This document shows, piece after piece, positions 1,454 to 12,558 of a DNA stretch of 24,000 nucleotides. The position numbers were made by a program, and so were the translations under genes. The notes beneath the pieces are model-generated. The model did no database searches. It had not been told where the DNA came from and saw only the letters and a list, made by a program, of their open reading frames with translations. Position 1 is the first letter of the stretch; each line of letters opens with the position of its first letter. This DNA is from Candidatus Caldarchaeum subterraneum (GTDB taxonomy: Archaea; Thermoproteota; Nitrososphaeria_A; Caldarchaeales; Caldarchaeaceae). The stretch is taken from contig CALHAG010000008.1 in assembly GCA_937934305.1 (NCBI GenBank), forward strand, positions 56,377 to 80,376, read 5' to 3'.

Positions 1454-1777
1454 TTGAAATGTGATGTCTGCGGCGAGTCTGTTCCATATTTGTTGCTAAG
1501 GCTGGATAAACCCCGTTGCCCCAAGGGTCATGAGCTAGGAGTATGGGTCGCATGCGGTAACCCCGAAGAGAGCCATGTCTATCTATGGAGAGAAGGGATG
1601 AAGTGTCCATACTGCGGCGACGAAAAATATCAGCCCATGTCACGAGGCGTCAAGGTCAAATGCCTAAACATGGGCCCAAGCGGTCCCTGCAACTATCCGT
1701 ACTACACTTGGCTCGAGGACGGGCCACCTTGTCACATGAACCATTTGAGCAAGATAGCGGTCGTAAAAAATGCGTAG
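1454..1777 (+). CDS. Cys/His-rich zinc-ribbon protein, function unknown
   Basis: 107 aa, TTG start. Metal-ligand candidates: C3xxC6, C22xxxH26, C51xxC54, C70, C79, C93-H94-xx-H97. Its end overlaps the tsaC start by 8 nt, which suggests co-translation. I recognise no family. Confidence 0.5.
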   Translation: MKCDVCGESVPYLLLRLDKPRCPKGHELGVWVACGNPEESHVYLWREGMKCPYCGDEKYQPMSRGVKVKCLNMGPSGPCNYPYYTWLEDGPPCHMNHLSKIAVVKNA

Positions 1778-2381
1778 ACATGGTTTACTAGAGGCGATAA
1801 ACTCAGCGGCCGAGGCGGTCAAACGCGGTGGAGTAATTGTTTACCCTACAGATACTGTTTATGGCATCGGCTGCGACCCCTTCAAAATCGACGCCGTCGA
1901 AAGGGTTATTCATGCTAAGATGCGTGAAAAAAAGCCCGCCCCTGTCCTGGTAAGCGATTTGGACCAGCTCCTAGAGGTTGCTGAGCCGACCGAAGAAGAG
2001 CTGGAGGCAGCCATACGTCTTTGGCCGGGGGCAGTGACAATCGTTATGGCGAAGAGACCCGAGCTGCCCGACCTTGTCACCGCCGGGGAGAAGACAGTTG
2101 GGGTCCGAATGCCCGCACATATTGTTCCTCTCCTGATAATGCAGAAGGCACGCAGGCCCTTGGTTGGCACGAGCGCGAATATTTCGGGTGAACCATCAGC
2201 AGCAACCATCGACCAGATACCTTCAAGCGTTCTCGAGAAGGTGGACGTTGTCGTGGACGCGGGAAGAACACATCATCAATTACCATCGACCGTTGTGAAA
2301 ATTCAGAACAGGCGGGTGATTGTTCTTCGTGAGGGCGCAGTATCTCGTGAAGAGGTTGAGAAAAGAATTGGGCTTAAATAA
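1770..2381 (+). CDS. tsaC: L-threonylcarbamoyladenylate synthase, short YrdC-domain-only form (TsaC/Sua5 family)
   Basis: 203 aa. Motifs: VIVYPTDTVYGIGCDP, VGVRMP, PLVGTSANISGEPS, STVV. There is no C-terminal SUA5 domain; the protein ends about 15 aa after the YrdC fold. Confidence 0.85.
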   Translation: MRRHGLLEAINSAAEAVKRGGVIVYPTDTVYGIGCDPFKIDAVERVIHAKMREKKPAPVLVSDLDQLLEVAEPTEEELEAAIRLWPGAVTIVMAKRPELPDLVTAGEKTVGVRMPAHIVPLLIMQKARRPLVGTSANISGEPSAATIDQIPSSVLEKVDVVVDAGRTHHQLPSTVVKIQNRRVIVLREGAVSREEVEKRIGLK

Positions 2382-2916
2382 GAGTCGTGGCTATTTTCTG
2401 CATAATCGCGAGCTTGAGCGCTTCTATGCTCGTTTTCGCTTGGACAGATTTGTAAACTTTTTCTGTAACTCCGTAGAGTTCCGCGAATCGCGTCTGGTCG
2501 GGATTTTTCGGCAAATCCGTCTCTTCACCGCCTGCAAGGGATAGAACCTTCGCTGCCTTCTCCTCAACCTGCTCCCGAGAGTTCCCCAGCACCAGAAAAA
2601 CCGCTCGCTTGCTGCCGGGCTTTAGCCCAAACTTGGCGATTGCTTCGCTGATTTGCGTGGTGGCGGCAAGCCGCATCAAAACCTCGTTTGAAAGAGTGCG
2701 CGCCCTCTGACGAGAGGCCCTCACAGCTAAGACAGCGTTCATAAGCGCGGCGTCGAAAACATCCCAATCAAGAATCGAGTCCGCGTCAAATACCTGAGCA
2801 TCATCCACAACGTTACGGACTTTTTCCACAAAATCATCAGCAGGTTCGTCCCGCAGCCACACCACGCCCGCGGCGAAAAACAGGTCAAAGACTTTTCCCA
2901 TCCTCATATTAGCCAC
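2374..2916 (-). CDS. cgi121: KEOPS complex subunit Cgi121
   Basis: 180 aa. QVFDADSI...A..NAV.A........RTLSNEVLMRLAATTQISEAIAKFGLKPG...VFLVL is colinear with archaeal Cgi121 (M. jannaschii pattern FQILNADVV...KSFWMEILVRASGQRQIHEAIKIIG). The GTG start at 2916 overlaps the upstream Ubl stop. An alternative ATG lies at 2907. Confidence 0.7.
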   Translation of the reverse strand: MANMRMGKVFDLFFAAGVVWLRDEPADDFVEKVRNVVDDAQVFDADSILDWDVFDAALMNAVLAVRASRQRARTLSNEVLMRLAATTQISEAIAKFGLKPGSKRAVFLVLGNSREQVEEKAAKVLSLAGGEETDLPKNPDQTRFAELYGVTEKVYKSVQAKTSIEALKLAIMQKIATTLI

Positions 2917-3178
2917 CGTGTATGGATGGAATTAACGTCACAACATCGTCCTCGTCAACCACCGTATCCAACCACGTTAGATACCTCACGTCAACTCCGT
3001 TAACCAGTATTAGCAGACCCGGCTGAGGACGTCCAGCATCATCCATAATCATCCTCCGCACCTCTTCATCAAACAGCACGAAAACCTCCCTCAACTTAAC
3101 CGGTTCCCTCAACGCTATATCAATAAACCTTTTCCCCACCATAGCTCTCAGAGGACCCAGTAGCTCGACCCTCAACAT
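2909..3178 (-). CDS. MoaD/ThiS/SAMP-type ubiquitin-like beta-grasp protein ending in Gly-Gly
   Basis: 89 aa. ...GLLILVNGVDVRYL...VVDEDDVVTLIPSIHGG is followed directly by the stop codon. This length and the LVNG...D.V.(L/I)IP...GG pattern are typical of sulfur-carrier and small archaeal modifier proteins. Confidence 0.75.
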   Translation of the reverse strand: MLRVELLGPLRAMVGKRFIDIALREPVKLREVFVLFDEEVRRMIMDDAGRPQPGLLILVNGVDVRYLTWLDTVVDEDDVVTLIPSIHGG

Positions 3179-3236
3179 AGAGCACTCAAGCAGGGTTGTA
3201 AAAAATCTTATCAGGTGAAAATTTTTTAGATGTTCT

Positions 3237-3755
3237 TTGGAACCCTTAGCTGTGAAGATTCCAGAGGAGCGTTTGAAGATATTTTTCGAGATGGAGGAGA
3301 AGTATAGGGAGAAGGATGCAGAATATTTCAGGACTTTGTTGAAGAGCGGTGACTTTGTTATCCGCGCTAGGGCTACGTGTATTTTGGCTGAGATAGGTGG
3401 CAGAGACTATATCCATGACCTTGCCGAGGTGCTGCTGCATGACGATAACCCTATTGTGCGTCATGAGGCCGCTTATAGTCTCGGGCAGCTGGGATACCGA
3501 GAGGCGATTCCCTACCTCGTTGAGTCTGTAAAGAAGGACCCGCACCCCATAGTCCGCCACGAATCAGCCATAGCACTCGGTGTAATAGGCAGAACAGACC
3601 CTGTCCCAGACCTAATCGAGGCGCTGAAGGACGAGTCCCCTGAAGTGGTAGATTCCGCCATTATAGCGCTAAGCAACATAGAGTTCTGCAAAAGGCTTTT
3701 CACACAAACAGTGGACGAGATGGCTGCAGAGTTCGCGCGCAAAACGGGAGGCTGA
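3237..3755 (+). CDS. HEAT-repeat protein resembling one half of deoxyhypusine hydroxylase (two VRHE motifs)
   Basis: 172 aa, about four HEAT/PBS-lyase-like repeats. The motifs NPIVRHEAAYSLGQLG (His-Glu codons 3462-3467) and HPIVRHESAIALGVIG (His-Glu codons 3558-3563) lie 32 residues apart. The start is uncertain: TTG 3237, GTG 3252 (best spaced, about 27 nt, from the A/T tract 3217-3228) or ATG 3291. Confidence 0.75.
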   Translation: MEPLAVKIPEERLKIFFEMEEKYREKDAEYFRTLLKSGDFVIRARATCILAEIGGRDYIHDLAEVLLHDDNPIVRHEAAYSLGQLGYREAIPYLVESVKKDPHPIVRHESAIALGVIGRTDPVPDLIEALKDESPEVVDSAIIALSNIEFCKRLFTQTVDEMAAEFARKTGG

Positions 3756-8717: not shown

Positions 8718-9629
8718 CTACCCTGTTTCCTCTAAAAGCGCCAGAACAAGAATAGGCAGCGCAACTGTCGCATCTGTTTTCACGAAGACATGCCGCCCCT
8801 TTGAAGAGATTTTATGCCATGTGACGGCTTCCCTGGGCCTAGCTCCGCTTAGGCTGCCGTCATATTCATCGGCTGTTGAGATGTAGACCGCTGTATCGAG
8901 TCCCTCTCCCCCGAACTGAGACCACCAAAGCAGATGATGTTTCGATATTCCGCCGCCGATTATGAGCCCGGCTTTACGGCGGCTACTCCACATTATCTCG
9001 TTGAGAAGGTTTTGGTCTTTTTCATAGCTCAGCCTTATCTTTTTACGTAGCCACAGCTGGTATCCGAAGGCGCCGTCAAAAATTCCCGGAACCATGACGG
9101 GAACCCTATGTCTATAACACCAGTAAAGCCACGAGTTTTCGGACCCAAGCCTCTCACCAATTTTCCACAAAACCTCATACACGGGCAGTTCAGCTCCATG
9201 TCCAAGCTCTCCGACAAGGTCCGCTACCTCACGCTCAACCACCAGCCCATAGCTTGACTGGTCGATGTAGACGTTGCCGAGTCTGTGGACGTTTTTCTCG
9301 GCGAGCTCCCAATCATCGGCGTCAAAACTGCCAACCCTGTAGCGGGACCTTGTACGGGCGATGTCGTGGTCAACGGCCCCGCAGGTTGTAAACACCAAGT
9401 CAAACCATTTTCTCCGCAGCATCTCTACAAACACCCCCCTTAGGCCTGTTGCCACAAGGTTGCCCGTGAAAGAAATCATTCTCAAACATTCTCGGTCAGA
9501 CAACACATCCCTGAGCAGCTGATAGGCCTCGGCGAGATGAGCCCCCATAAACCCGCCCATCCTCCCCATCATCCTGAGAAGCTCCGCCGCCGAACATCCC
9601 TTCACCAGCCTCACATCCTCAACATACAT
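8718..9629 (-). CDS. dys: Deoxyhypusine synthase
   Basis: 303 aa. Motifs: FTGNLVATGLRG, FTTCGAVDHD, GNVYI, IIGGGISKHH, STADEYDGSLSGARPREAVTWHKI (catalytic Lys region). Convergent with aspartate kinase, with 2 nt between the stops. Confidence 0.9.
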   Translation of the reverse strand: MYVEDVRLVKGCSAAELLRMMGRMGGFMGAHLAEAYQLLRDVLSDRECLRMISFTGNLVATGLRGVFVEMLRRKWFDLVFTTCGAVDHDIARTRSRYRVGSFDADDWELAEKNVHRLGNVYIDQSSYGLVVEREVADLVGELGHGAELPVYEVLWKIGERLGSENSWLYWCYRHRVPVMVPGIFDGAFGYQLWLRKKIRLSYEKDQNLLNEIMWSSRRKAGLIIGGGISKHHLLWWSQFGGEGLDTAVYISTADEYDGSLSGARPREAVTWHKISSKGRHVFVKTDATVALPILVLALLEETG

Positions 9630-9699
9630 AGAATTATCCGCTTAATCGCCAGCTATAAACCCGCGAAACAATTAAGAAACCCTCTAACAGAAAAGTTGC

Positions 9700-9942
9700 A
9701 TGACTGTTGTAGGAATATTTTTATCCGTGGTAGGCGGCATGCTGACCGCCGGCGGGTTCTGGCTATGCTGGGATGTTTACAAGACACAGCAGTATGAGGG
9801 CGGCGGTGCCGAGACACCTTTTCCTCTTCCCTTCTTCTCAAAATATCTCAGACGCGACGCCGCCTTCGACCTCGGTGTCTCGATGGGTGTATTGGGATAC
9901 CTAATAGGTCTGATGGGCGCTTTTCTCACCTGTCAAACATAA
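9700..9942 (+). CDS. Small membrane protein with two predicted TM helices
   Basis: 80 aa. Hydrophobic segments VVGIFLSVVGGMLTAGGFWLCW and LGVSMGVLGYLIGLMGAFL. A TATA-like ctataaac lies about 45 nt upstream. No recognisable family. Confidence 0.45.
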   Translation: MTVVGIFLSVVGGMLTAGGFWLCWDVYKTQQYEGGGAETPFPLPFFSKYLRRDAAFDLGVSMGVLGYLIGLMGAFLTCQT

Positions 9943-9985
9943 AAGGTGGATAAATCAACAAAACTCAGGAAACAGAGGAAAAGAG

Positions 9986-11239
9986 ATGGAGATAACTTTT
10001 CTAGGGGGATGCCTAGAGGTCGGTAGGTCGGGAATACTGGTCAGCTACAAGAACACCAGAATCCTTCTCGACTACGGCGTCATGCTCAACGACCACCCAG
10101 AGTTCCCGATGCCTGTTGAAACAAAGAAGCTCAACGCAGTTATCCTAACCCATGCACATCTCGACCACTCAGGCGGAATCCCCATGCTATACATTAACAG
10201 AAACCCAAAACTCTACACAACGTCGATGACAAGAGACACCGCGGCACTCCTCATAAAAGATTTCATAAAACTTTCAGGACAATACCTCCTCTTTGAAAAC
10301 CAGGAACTGGAAAAAATGCTGCGAAACACGCGGACCTTCTACTACCGCGAGCCATTCACAGTCGGAGACCTTGAGATAGAGTTGGTTGACGCGGGACACA
10401 TACCGGGAAGCGCCCAGGTCCTGGTCAACGGCGACAAAACACTCGTCTACACAGGCGACTTTACAACTATCAAGACCCGGATGCTTGACGGAGCAGATAC
10501 AACCATAGGTGATGTGGACGCGGTTATAATAGAGTCAACCTATGCCCATGAAGACCATGAGCCGCGGCCGGAACTGGAGAAAAAGTTTGTCAAAGCCTGT
10601 CGCGAAGTGGTGGAGAATGGTGGAAGAGTGTTGGTGCCAGCCTTCTCTGTGGGCCGTTCCCAGGAGATTCTCTGCATACTCGCTGCTCACAACTTTCCCT
10701 ACACCATCTGGCTCGACGGCATGGCGAAGAAAACACTCGAAAATTATTTGTCGGATAAAAGGTTTGTGGATAACGTGGACATCCTCGAGAAAGCCAACAG
10801 GAAAACACGCTTCGTTAAAGGACGTAGAGAAAGGGAGACGGCGCTCTCGGAGCCAGGTGTCATCGTGACCCCCGCAGGTATGTTGAAGGGTGGGCCCGCT
10901 CTCTACTATGCGCCCGAGATAGTTGAGGACGAGAAGTCGGCGATTTTCCTCGCAAGCTTCCAAATACCTGGGACGCCGGGCGAGATTCTCCTCAACCAAG
11001 GAAGACTGGTGGTCGACAACCTAGACAAGCCAGCCAACTGCATCGTTAAACAGTTCAGGTTCTCGGGACACGCCGGCAGGACGCAGCTACACGACTACCT
11101 GCGAAAAATAGAGACAAACGCCAAAGTCTTCACCGTCCACGGAGAGCCAGAGATGTGCAAAACTCTCTCAACATGGGCCCAGCAGGAACTCGGGCTCGAA
11201 GCCACAGCCCCCAGAATCAACGACACCATAACACTTTAA
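9986..11239 (+). CDS. Beta-CASP family metallo-beta-lactamase ribonuclease (KH-less, aCPSF2-like)
   Basis: 417 aa. MBL motifs: LLDYG, THAHLDHSGG, AGHIPGS, YTGDF. Beta-CASP motifs: A (IIESTY), B (RFSGHA), C (TVHGE). Confidence 0.85.
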   Translation: MEITFLGGCLEVGRSGILVSYKNTRILLDYGVMLNDHPEFPMPVETKKLNAVILTHAHLDHSGGIPMLYINRNPKLYTTSMTRDTAALLIKDFIKLSGQYLLFENQELEKMLRNTRTFYYREPFTVGDLEIELVDAGHIPGSAQVLVNGDKTLVYTGDFTTIKTRMLDGADTTIGDVDAVIIESTYAHEDHEPRPELEKKFVKACREVVENGGRVLVPAFSVGRSQEILCILAAHNFPYTIWLDGMAKKTLENYLSDKRFVDNVDILEKANRKTRFVKGRRERETALSEPGVIVTPAGMLKGGPALYYAPEIVEDEKSAIFLASFQIPGTPGEILLNQGRLVVDNLDKPANCIVKQFRFSGHAGRTQLHDYLRKIETNAKVFTVHGEPEMCKTLSTWAQQELGLEATAPRINDTITL

Positions 11240-11267: not shown

Positions 11268-11341
11268 GCGGCGGTCGTCTAGCCTGGTAGGACACCAGCC
11301 TGCCACGCTGGGAGTCGCGGGTTCAAATCCCGCCCGCCGCA
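11268..11341 (+). tRNA. tRNA-Gly (anticodon GCC)
   Basis: Hand-folded cloverleaf of 74 nt. Acceptor GCGGCGG/CCGCCGC, D stem GTCT/GGAC, anticodon stem CCAGC/GCTGG with loop CTGCCAC, T arm GCGGG-TTCAAAT-CCCGC, discriminator A. No intron and no encoded CCA. Confidence 0.9.
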
Positions 11342-11372
11342 GCTTCGAAAAAATAATTTGTTGGAGGGTGTT

Positions 11373-11419
11373 CAATCTACTTTGGGGATGTTATTCCATT
11401 CTCGGTGCTTAGTAGATTG
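11373..11419 (+). repeat. 9-bp perfect inverted repeat (CAATCTACT/AGTAGATTG) 32 nt downstream of tRNA-Gly
   Basis: Arms are at 11373-11381 and 11411-11419, with a 29-nt spacer. It sits at the left edge of the low-GC islet. Confidence 0.5.
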
Positions 11420-11580
11420 TAAATGAGATAATTTTTTAGCCACATAACACCATCCAGAAGCTTTATATTCTGGTCGAGCGCAGGAACGAATTACCGTTTC
11501 ACTTGCCAGTATCAGGGCCCTTAGGAACCTCCTAGAACAAGCGCCCGTCTTCCACGTCTCAAAACATGGGGAGGAGAAAT

Positions 11581-12558
11581 ATGAGCTCTGTGTCCTCCCA
11601 GGATGAGAAGGCTGGTCAGGCGGTGAAGAGGAGGTATCTTCCACGAGAATTGCGGATAAAGGCCCACGACATGGTCATAAGGCTTCGATTGCAGGGAATG
11701 TCGTATAACAAGATAATCTACGAGGTTTACATTGCGCTCGGAGTAAGGTTATCAAAGTCACACATTAGCTACTATGTAAGAGGACTTCATAATCCAAGGA
11801 ATGGAATATACATTAGTTCTCTTGAGTGTCTGATGCCTAGCGAAGACCTCGCCTTTGTAATTGGTGCTGTAATTGGCGATGGGACTACAAAGAGGACAAA
11901 ATCAGGAGACTTCGTCATGATGTTTAGGGTTAAGGACAAGGAGTTCGCAGAAGAGTTCTCTAAGAGGATAGCGAATGTCCTTGGGAGACAAGCGCTAAAA
12001 CCGCGGGTTCTTAAAGATGGCAGATGGGCAATAGAAATTAAATCGAAGATTCTCTATGAGCTACTTAAGAAGCCTATCGACATCGAGAGGATAAGACCAT
12101 TTGTCGAACACTGTGAAAAATGCGTTGGGGCGTTTATTAGAGGGTTCTTCGATGCCGAAGGGATTGTAAGAAAAGATGGAACCATGACCGTGGTCAACAC
12201 TGACTTTAATCTACTGCTTTATGTAAGGGATTTGTTAAGGAAAATCAATGTCGAGACGACAAGCGAGCCGAAACTGCATACACCAGCAGGAACATCCGTC
12301 AGAGGCCGTAATGGTAAGGTCTACAAAACCAGAAAAGACCTCTATTACTTACAAATTAGAAAGTCTTCGAACGAGAACTTCTACGACATGGTGGGATTCA
12401 CTATTGATAGGAAGAGGAAAAGGCTGGAGGAATACCTGAGACGGAGAAAAAGCCGGCCAGCCTCAACCACCCCTATTTTTTCCCTATTTACACCTCACCT
12501 GTTTTTTGAAAACAATTCCATTCTTAAAATTTACCTAAAGTCCTCTAAAGCTTTATGA
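11581..12558 (+). CDS. LAGLIDADG (double-motif) homing-endonuclease-family protein with an N-terminal helix-turn-helix region
   Basis: Two LAGLIDADG motifs with acidic residues intact: LAFVIGAVIGDGTT and VGAFIRGFFDAEGIV. The N-terminal roughly 70 aa (LRLQGMSYNKIIYEV...LSKSHISYYVRG) looks HTH-like. ATG 11581 is preferred over 11566 because GGAGG lies 6 nt upstream. The C-terminal roughly 30 codons run through T-rich, intergenic-looking sequence. Confidence 0.8.
   Translation: MSSVSSQDEKAGQAVKRRYLPRELRIKAHDMVIRLRLQGMSYNKIIYEVYIALGVRLSKSHISYYVRGLHNPRNGIYISSLECLMPSEDLAFVIGAVIGDGTTKRTKSGDFVMMFRVKDKEFAEEFSKRIANVLGRQALKPRVLKDGRWAIEIKSKILYELLKKPIDIERIRPFVEHCEKCVGAFIRGFFDAEGIVRKDGTMTVVNTDFNLLLYVRDLLRKINVETTSEPKLHTPAGTSVRGRNGKVYKTRKDLYYLQIRKSSNENFYDMVGFTIDRKRKRLEEYLRRRKSRPASTTPIFSLFTPHLFFENNSILKIYLKSSKAL

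Follow-up and report, generated by a model that had tools for sequence, protein, structure and literature searches.

Eukaryotic deoxyhypusine hydroxylase (DOHH, EC 1.14.99.29; human PDB 4d4z, yeast Lia1) is a HEAT-repeat solenoid of ~300 aa in which two fused lobes together carry four His-Glu (HE) motifs. According to review and mutagenesis data, the His and Glu residues of these motifs and the Gly seven positions after the first His are assigned to iron and substrate binding. The Crenarchaeota described as hypusine-positive in the literature include Pyrodictium and Thermoproteus. However, papers of 2016, 2018 and 2021 state that Archaea have no known DOHH orthologue, and our literature searches for later reports of an archaeal DOHH found none. 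Here we analyse a 24,000-nucleotide stretch of DNA from Candidatus Caldarchaeum (hereafter the window), in which an open reading frame (ORF) at 3237–3755 encodes a four-repeat HEAT protein about half the size of eukaryotic DOHH. A first-pass annotation, made from the sequence without database searches, had proposed this protein as a candidate for the missing archaeal hypusine hydroxylase.

Comparison with DOHH and generic HEAT proteins

Based on sequence comparisons, we conclude with high confidence that the window protein is a DOHH-homologous metal-binding lobe. Its translation confirms approximately four HEAT repeats in 172 aa, with HE pairs at residues 76/77 and 108/109, 32 residues apart, as first annotated; repeats 2 and 3 read IVRHEAAYSLGQLG and IVRHESAIALGVIG, respectively. 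Shared with eukaryotic DOHH are the HEAT solenoid, VRHE-type motifs in the second and third repeats of a lobe of four, the glycine of LGQ, the repeat 1 sequence R-x-R-A, the repeat 4 sequence [ST]-x-x-x-AL and an aromatic tail at the C-terminus (ALSNIEF…KFAxxTGG in the window family, ALDMYEYE…FEYA in DOHH). Unlike the eukaryotic enzyme, the window protein has a single lobe of 167–172 aa with two HE motifs, spaced 32 rather than 33 residues apart, and would need to oligomerise to form a four-HE site. The family also has an N-terminal helix motif, C48 and a terminal TGG, for which eukaryotic DOHH has no equivalent. Because the window protein lacks the two-lobed, four-HE layout of a single DOHH chain, we class the protein by its sequence as a variant and not as a canonical DOHH member.

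Generic HEAT proteins of the phycobilisome (PBS)-lyase type (HEAT_2/HEAT_PBS, alphaRep, YibA, CpcE/F) share with the window family a repeat of 31–33 residues and the VR..AA.ALG.IG consensus. However, these proteins are hypervariable at the two residues that follow VR and are not known to have a metal site, whereas in the window family these residues are always HE in two neighbouring repeats. A scan of the ORF against Pfam and NCBIfam returned generic HEAT models only; neither database has a DOHH-specific model, and we custom-built hidden Markov models (HMMs) of 90 eukaryotic DOHHs, one for the N-halves, one for the C-halves and one for both. Against these the ORF scores 71, 70 and 82 bits, respectively, whereas 148 generic HEAT proteins, each represented by its best domain, have maxima of 56, 63 and 64 bits (medians 37–42). 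These proteins make a hard control, since they score highest against the window-family profile among 1.8 billion proteins and the best domain of each was taken from many candidate segments. The comparison thus came out in favour of DOHH, as the first-pass annotation had anticipated, and supports the view that the window protein is specifically DOHH-like by sequence, beyond a generic HEAT or PBS-lyase resemblance. The exhaustive profile search of the 1.8 billion representatives yielded 98,620 matches, dominated by giant HEAT proteins with many repeats, each of which adds to the score, and its useful yield was a single tandem protein, P0125, which is described below.

Among natural proteins in the PDB, human DOHH (4d4z) is the best match, scoring 87.5 bits when the ORF is the query and 131.5 bits when the family profile is, and leads the next natural match by more than 50 bits (Rpn2 34–49, YibA 30–47 and CpcE 23–29 bits). 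The entries ranking above it are designed consensus alphaRep proteins, and the top raw scores of generic HEAT and alphaRep proteins are owing to consensus design. The ORF is colinear with both halves of human DOHH at 34–35% identity with the HE pairs in register, which bears out and extends the colinearity first proposed for the N-terminal half; the human sequence quoted in that proposal is exact when compared with 4d4z.

Each of 119/119 full-length homologues, the most divergent at 48% identity, has both HE pairs at a spacing of always 32, and the pairs are equally invariant in 80/80 GTDB species loci, these being the best 80 of 557 relatives found in a scan of 185,579 species genomes. The expectation that orthologues keep both pairs therefore held, as did the statement that generic PBS-lyase HEAT repeats usually lack the motif: HE occurs at the equivalent position in only 6 of 1,705 generic PBS-type repeats (0.35%), and an adjacent double HE in 2 of 738 generic repeat pairs. 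Since the motifs are rare in generic repeats yet invariant in the homologues, their occurrence in the window family exceeds chance on this sequence evidence. Among the 148 controls, a single giant generic HEAT protein (one of P0121–P0269) contains two adjacent-repeat HE-HE pairs and might harbour an embedded DOHH-like module.

The equivalents of the DOHH iron ligands (two His and one Glu per lobe) are kept, with H76/E77 and H108/E109 aligning with human 56/57 and 89/90 and also with 207/208 and 240/241, positions that had been given in the first-pass annotation and are confirmed by a review. The predicted substrate-binding residues E77, E109 and G83 are likewise invariant, although generic repeats often have such a Gly too. 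Across the tandem, the DPANN-type proteins introduced below and the eukaryotic DOHHs, the four HE columns and the Gly at H+7 show no variation. An AlphaFold (AF2) model of the window protein (pLDDT 92.6, pTM 0.87) is an all-helical solenoid of approximately four HEAT hairpins with an N-terminal helix and a C-terminal tail. This monomer superposes on 4d4z_A with a root mean square deviation (rmsd) of 2.9 Å over 139 residues, and generic HEAT proteins fit equally well.

The features of the gene, and the deoxyhypusine synthase (DHS) gene to which it is compared below, are located in the window as follows.

3237–3755, forward strand: annotated ORF of the single-lobe DOHH-like HEAT protein, 172 aa; TTG at 3237, stop TGA at 3753–3755
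3252–3755, forward strand: probable true coding region, 167 aa; GTG at the start position of orthologues, N-terminus MKIPEERL
3220–3231, no strand assigned: AT-rich box AAAATTTTTTAG, candidate archaeal TATA element from its sequence, ~25 nt before GTG 3252
3270–3329, forward strand: family-specific N-terminal helix region with R12, M19, E20, Y23 and F31
3363–3380, forward strand: repeat 1 motif RARATC, with R43, R45, A46 and C48
3456–3488, forward strand: first His-Glu motif VRHEAAYSLGQ; H76/E77 at nt 3462–3467; G83 corresponds to human G63/G214
3552–3590, forward strand: second His-Glu motif VRHESAIALGVIG; H108/E109 at nt 3558–3563, corresponding to human H89/E90 and H240/E241
3645–3677, forward strand: repeat 4 motif VVDSAIIALSN; S140, A144, L145 and N147 invariant; aligns with DOHH E(T/S)C..AL
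3732–3752, forward strand: invariant C-terminal tail FARKTGG (residues 166–172); the Phe aligns with the F-[EQ]-Y tail of eukaryotic DOHH
8718–9629, reverse strand: DHS (PF01916, 297 bits), 5 kb from the HEAT gene and loosely linked

The ORF at 3237–3755 is confirmed on the forward strand, but since its orthologues, which are 165–168 aa long, begin with MKIPxERL, GTG 3252 is probably the true start. A protein 100% identical to that of the window (P0001) is present in a Candidatus Caldarchaeum metagenome-assembled genome (MAG), and the AT-rich box sits within a 58-bp divergent intergenic region. The listed residues of the N-terminal helix and of repeat 1 are invariant in alignment A1 and at least 90% conserved in alignment A3. 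The helix motif is retained in both units of the natural tandem P0125, and the counterpart of R43 in the C-half of every four-HE protein is an invariant Arg. The family terminus follows the invariant pattern F-x-[KR]-x-T-G-G-stop, with a GG end in 78 GTDB loci, and this diglycine resembles the termini of ubiquitin-like (Ubl), SAMP and ThiS proteins. Apparent 'long' family members of ~200–225 aa were set aside as apparently miscalled starts in thaumarchaeal contigs.

Distribution and two-lobed relatives

The best 80 of the 557 GTDB relatives all belong to the Nitrososphaerota, where they represent the orders Caldarchaeales (Aigarchaeota), Nitrosopumilales including Nitrosotenuis, Nitrososphaerales and Nitrosomirales. 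All half-size members with assignable taxonomy are from this phylum, and the tandem P0125 is encoded on a woesearchaeal contig. The hosts are non-phototrophic archaea of mainly aerobic lineages, which fits an O2-dependent enzyme. The more specific suggestion that this protein is the missing hydroxylase of hypusine-containing Crenarchaeota is unsupported, as the half-size members that could be placed all come from Nitrososphaerota. The MAG of Nitrososphaera sp. WS208 contains two family members (L043 and L085; 54% identical), which are either true paralogues, allowing a heterodimer, or the product of a mixed bin. In the other doubled MAG (L066/L080) the copies are 93% identical, suggesting strain heterogeneity.

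A separate family of ~280 aa with four HE motifs is found in DPANN archaea (P0296, P0301, P0303, P0280 and relatives), including P0296 from a 'Nanoarchaeota archaeon' MAG and P0301, which is named 'deoxyhypusine monooxygenase' by JGI. These proteins share with the window family an archaeal origin, an HE spacing of 32 in each half, ~30% identity per half and all HE columns, but differ in having two lobes per chain, no TGG and degenerate second motifs (V[KI]HEC and V[IL]HE[GA]). Their genes lie in archaeal contexts with PCNA, and have a convergent NOG1-type GTPase neighbour in 4/4 loci (L003, L004, L089 and L090). Judged by these sequences, the DPANN family is a full-length archaeal DOHH-like protein. 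The initial statement that no archaeal DOHH homologue has been identified thus stands for the literature but not for the sequence databases, given the DPANN family and the name 'deoxyhypusine monooxygenase' that JGI automatic annotation applies to several members of the half-size family as well.

The tandem P0125 is a natural 363-aa protein composed of two units of the window family with four HE motifs, the second unit ending in FARLIGG. Its AlphaFold model (pTM 0.78), in which the N-terminus and linker are disordered, matches human DOHH globally with a TM score of 0.83 (DOHH-normalised) over 303 columns, whereas all other PDB entries match only one lobe (TM at most ~0.5, rmsd >11 Å). P0125 begins with a hydrophobic, signal-peptide-like segment.

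To place the lobes relative to each other, we use a bootstrapped neighbour-joining (NJ) tree of half-units, in which the same half was taken twice for three eukaryotic sequences, leaving the clades unaffected. Both P0125 units fall within the clade of the half-size family (100%). The N- and C-halves of the DPANN proteins form one group (100%), as do those of the eukaryotic enzymes (75%), whereas a cross-lineage grouping of N-halves with N-halves was never recovered in this tree (0%). The simplest reading of these sequences is that a half-unit was fused independently three times, with concerted evolution as the alternative. Three fusions would be expected if the ancestral functional form was a dimer of half-units. 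Together, the tandem model and the half-unit tree lend indirect support to the idea that two half-size copies work together.

Possible links to hypusine and the proposed function

Two genomic contexts point to a connection of the family with hypusine. In Archaeon HR01, which encodes a protein 67% identical to that of the window within a different gene order, the HEAT gene lies 76 bp from a divergently transcribed paralogue of the DS family (302 bits), and the orthologous DHS is 1.1 kb away. The two DS-family genes are arranged tail to tail (L017, 7982–9922); the DHS is 63% identical to that of the window, and the 344-aa paralogue only ~26% identical. LOG/TIGR00725-like and ferritin/Dps-like genes are situated just beyond the HEAT gene.

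The second context is that of P0125, whose gene is the last in a co-directional cluster with DHS, a pyridoxal phosphate-type (PLP) decarboxylase, N-carbamoylputrescine amidase and agmatine deiminase (L006, 1–9903; Logan SRR21363124 contig 14). This cluster is flanked by two IF5A N-domain genes with hypusine-loop-like motifs (AGKHGGPK and KTGKQGHIK). The two IF5A-like proteins are unusual in consisting of the N-domain only, one of them with a long acidic disordered N-terminus, and a gamma-butyrobetaine-dioxygenase-like gene is also present; overall, the locus resembles a complete hypusine cassette on a woesearchaeal contig. Since the L006 DHS is 65–77% identical to the DHS of Woesearchaeota and Nanoarchaeota, we assign the contig by sequence to DPANN, with that lineage's ordinary DHS. 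A viral or bacterial contig with a homospermidine pathway was also considered and is rejected in view of this identity and the two flanking IF5A-like genes. Related woesearchaeal loci contain the DHS-decarboxylase pair alone, and comparison with this core therefore indicates that the HE-HEAT gene was recruited into the DHS operon. In searches for further copies of the cassette, metagenome scans returned two ordinary thaumarchaeal loci only, and viral contigs none. Taken together, the L006 operon and the HR01 adjacency suggest a functional linkage of the HEAT family to hypusine.

Nitrosopumilales share a different gene block, comprising L15e, a divergent thioredoxin-fold gene with a CPGC motif, the HEAT gene and a cupredoxin gene, followed by Rad50/Mre11/HerA/NurA, which is a vertically inherited neighbourhood. 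The CPGC motif of the thioredoxin-fold neighbour (221 aa; L001, 7238–7903, reverse strand) is invariant in 63/63 loci, and 97 bp separate this gene from the HEAT gene in N. koreensis. The CPGC protein may serve a di-iron enzyme as reductant; alternatively, the linkage may be no more than inherited synteny. A thioredoxin-fold–HEAT fusion on an ENA contig (P0278, 204 aa) was excluded as evidence. It is an in-frame join, at a 'GE' microhomology, of the first ~92 residues of the CPGC protein to a HEAT protein without repeat 1, and is probably an assembly chimera because it occurs on one contig only and the source genes are divergent.

Based on these sequences and models, we lean moderately towards the window protein being a dimeric single-lobe DOHH that acts on the deoxyhypusine of aIF5A. 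Two copies would associate about a two-fold axis to form a C2 homodimer, in which the conserved N-terminal helix may mediate dimerisation. Each chain would supply H76, H108 and E109 to one iron, rebuilding the di-iron centre with four HE motifs that two fused lobes provide in eukaryotic DOHH, while E77 and G83 would line a cleft for the deoxyhypusine side chain. We hypothesise that the dimer uses O2 with a DOHH-like activation to hydroxylate deoxyhypusine on aIF5A to hypusine. The DHS whose gene lies at a distance of 5 kb would make the substrate, and aerobic Nitrososphaerota would thereby make true hypusine.

Several observations weigh against this proposal. When the four H/E residues are replaced by Ala, the ORF drops to 51–60 bits on the DOHH-half HMMs, the top of the generic range, and its margin is gone; ~20 bits of DOHH-specific signal therefore reside in the HE motif itself. 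A fold search with the monomer model cannot tell DOHH and designed alphaRep proteins apart, and the terminal TGG of the family has no counterpart in eukaryotic DOHH or the DPANN-type proteins. Because the alignment underlying the P0125 model included eukaryotic DOHHs, the predicted lobe arrangement indicates compatibility with the DOHH architecture and is not independent proof of it. The case for a DHS operon comes from a single contig (L006), and the HEAT gene of Nitrosopumilales lacks a DHS within 10 kb in ~60 loci. Finally, we found no literature data on whether the aIF5A of Nitrososphaerota carries hypusine or deoxyhypusine.

The rival that survives best is a dimeric DOHH-type oxygenase, with di-iron or another metal, that acts on another substrate such as an aminoalkylated lysine, a free polyamine or another protein, which we consider unlikely. 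Such an enzyme would be in keeping with the gene being unlinked to DHS or IF5A in most hosts (Nitrosopumilales), where it lies near the CPGC thioredoxin-fold and cupredoxin genes, with the invariant features that are foreign to eukaryotic DOHH (the N-terminal helix motif, C48 and the terminal TGG), and with the divergent DS-family paralogue that adjoins the gene in HR01. However, the DOHH substrate-binding residues (both HE Glu and the H+7 Gly) are all invariant, the operonic contexts found are only with DHS, and in L006 also with IF5A-like genes, and the thaumarchaeal neighbourhood is an inherited block that includes L15e and Rad50/Mre11.

We regard as improbable a non-catalytic HEAT protein, such as a metal-binding sensor, chaperone or scaffold, whose HE residues bind a metal or partner without oxygen chemistry. 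The exclusively generic matches in Pfam and NCBIfam, a monomer fold that is indistinguishable from binder scaffolds and the loss of DOHH specificity upon masking of HE would all be expected of such a protein. It is hard to square, however, with DOHH iron and substrate residues that are invariant through the whole depth of the Nitrososphaerota, or with a tandem fusion into a DOHH-like architecture inside a DHS operon. The last rival, an ordinary PBS-lyase-type HEAT protein (CpcE/F- or NblB-like) with incidental HE, takes its appeal from the name 'HEAT repeat-containing PBS lyase' given to some family members in databases and from weak NCBIfam matches, and is effectively refuted by equivalog scores far below the curated cut-offs (NblB 34 bits against 300, CpcE 25 against 330 and CpcF 16 against 220), by the DOHH-half HMM scores, by PDB scores of 23–29 bits for CpcE against 88–131 for DOHH, by the non-phototrophic hosts and by an HE invariance that contradicts 'incidental'.

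Window neighbourhood and implications

The genes surrounding the HEAT gene in the window encode a ThiS/Urm1-like Ubl, CGI-121, Sua5/YrdC, a three-subunit molybdenum hydroxylase, aspartate kinase and DHS. This confirms the DHS and the divergent Ubl/CGI-121/TsaC neighbours reported in the first-pass annotation; the 5-kb arrangement of HEAT gene and DHS is kept only in six or seven close Caldarchaeum relatives. The Ubl (2909–3178), divergent from the HEAT gene, has the terminus HGG and overlaps the start of the gene for CGI-121, a KEOPS subunit, by 8 nt, and the CGI-121 gene in turn overlaps the end of the convergent Sua5/YrdC (TsaC) gene. A ubiquitin-like protein of the sulfur-carrier type is thus located tightly beside t6A-modification genes (1770–3178).

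On the other side of the DHS, a gene for a beta-CASP/RMMBL metallo-beta-lactamase RNase-like protein (9986–11239) adjoins it divergently (8718–11239), and a gene of this type is also found within ~2.5 kb of DHS in two woesearchaeal loci (L093 and L094). Further downstream, a tRNA-Gly(GCC) gene (11268–11341) is followed by a 330-aa ORF (11566–12558) that resembles a LAGLIDADG-type homing endonuclease by eye and coincides with a local dip in G+C content; the region 11268–12558 may be an element integrated at the tRNA gene.

With regard to the Crenarchaeota, the puzzle of the missing hydroxylase is narrowed. Pyrodictium and Thermoproteus are strict anaerobes, and an O2-dependent di-iron enzyme would therefore be unable to serve some of the hypusine-positive members of this group. 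The hydroxylase of the hypusine-containing, partly anaerobic Crenarchaeota would have to be a different enzyme.

For the Nitrososphaerota, the half-size family provides a concrete and easily cloned candidate of ~19 kDa for archaeal aIF5A hypusination. It is present in cultivated Nitrosopumilus and Nitrososphaera, whose aIF5A is amenable to mass spectrometry, and the claim that archaea lack DOHH is now directly testable in ammonia-oxidising archaea and their relatives. If active, the protein would be a minimal DOHH with a symmetric di-iron site at the dimer interface of a repeat protein, and would show the origin of the internal dyad of eukaryotic DOHH.

A broader and more tentative possibility, in our view doubtful, is that the homodimeric single-lobe DOHH is the ancestral form and still the working enzyme across the Nitrososphaerota, which would make full hypusine, and that the half-unit was fused separately to give the two-lobed enzymes of eukaryotes, those of DPANN archaea and the woesearchaeal tandem. 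If this were true, the complete hypusine pathway, including its O2-dependent last step, would be an archaeal invention that predates eukaryotes.

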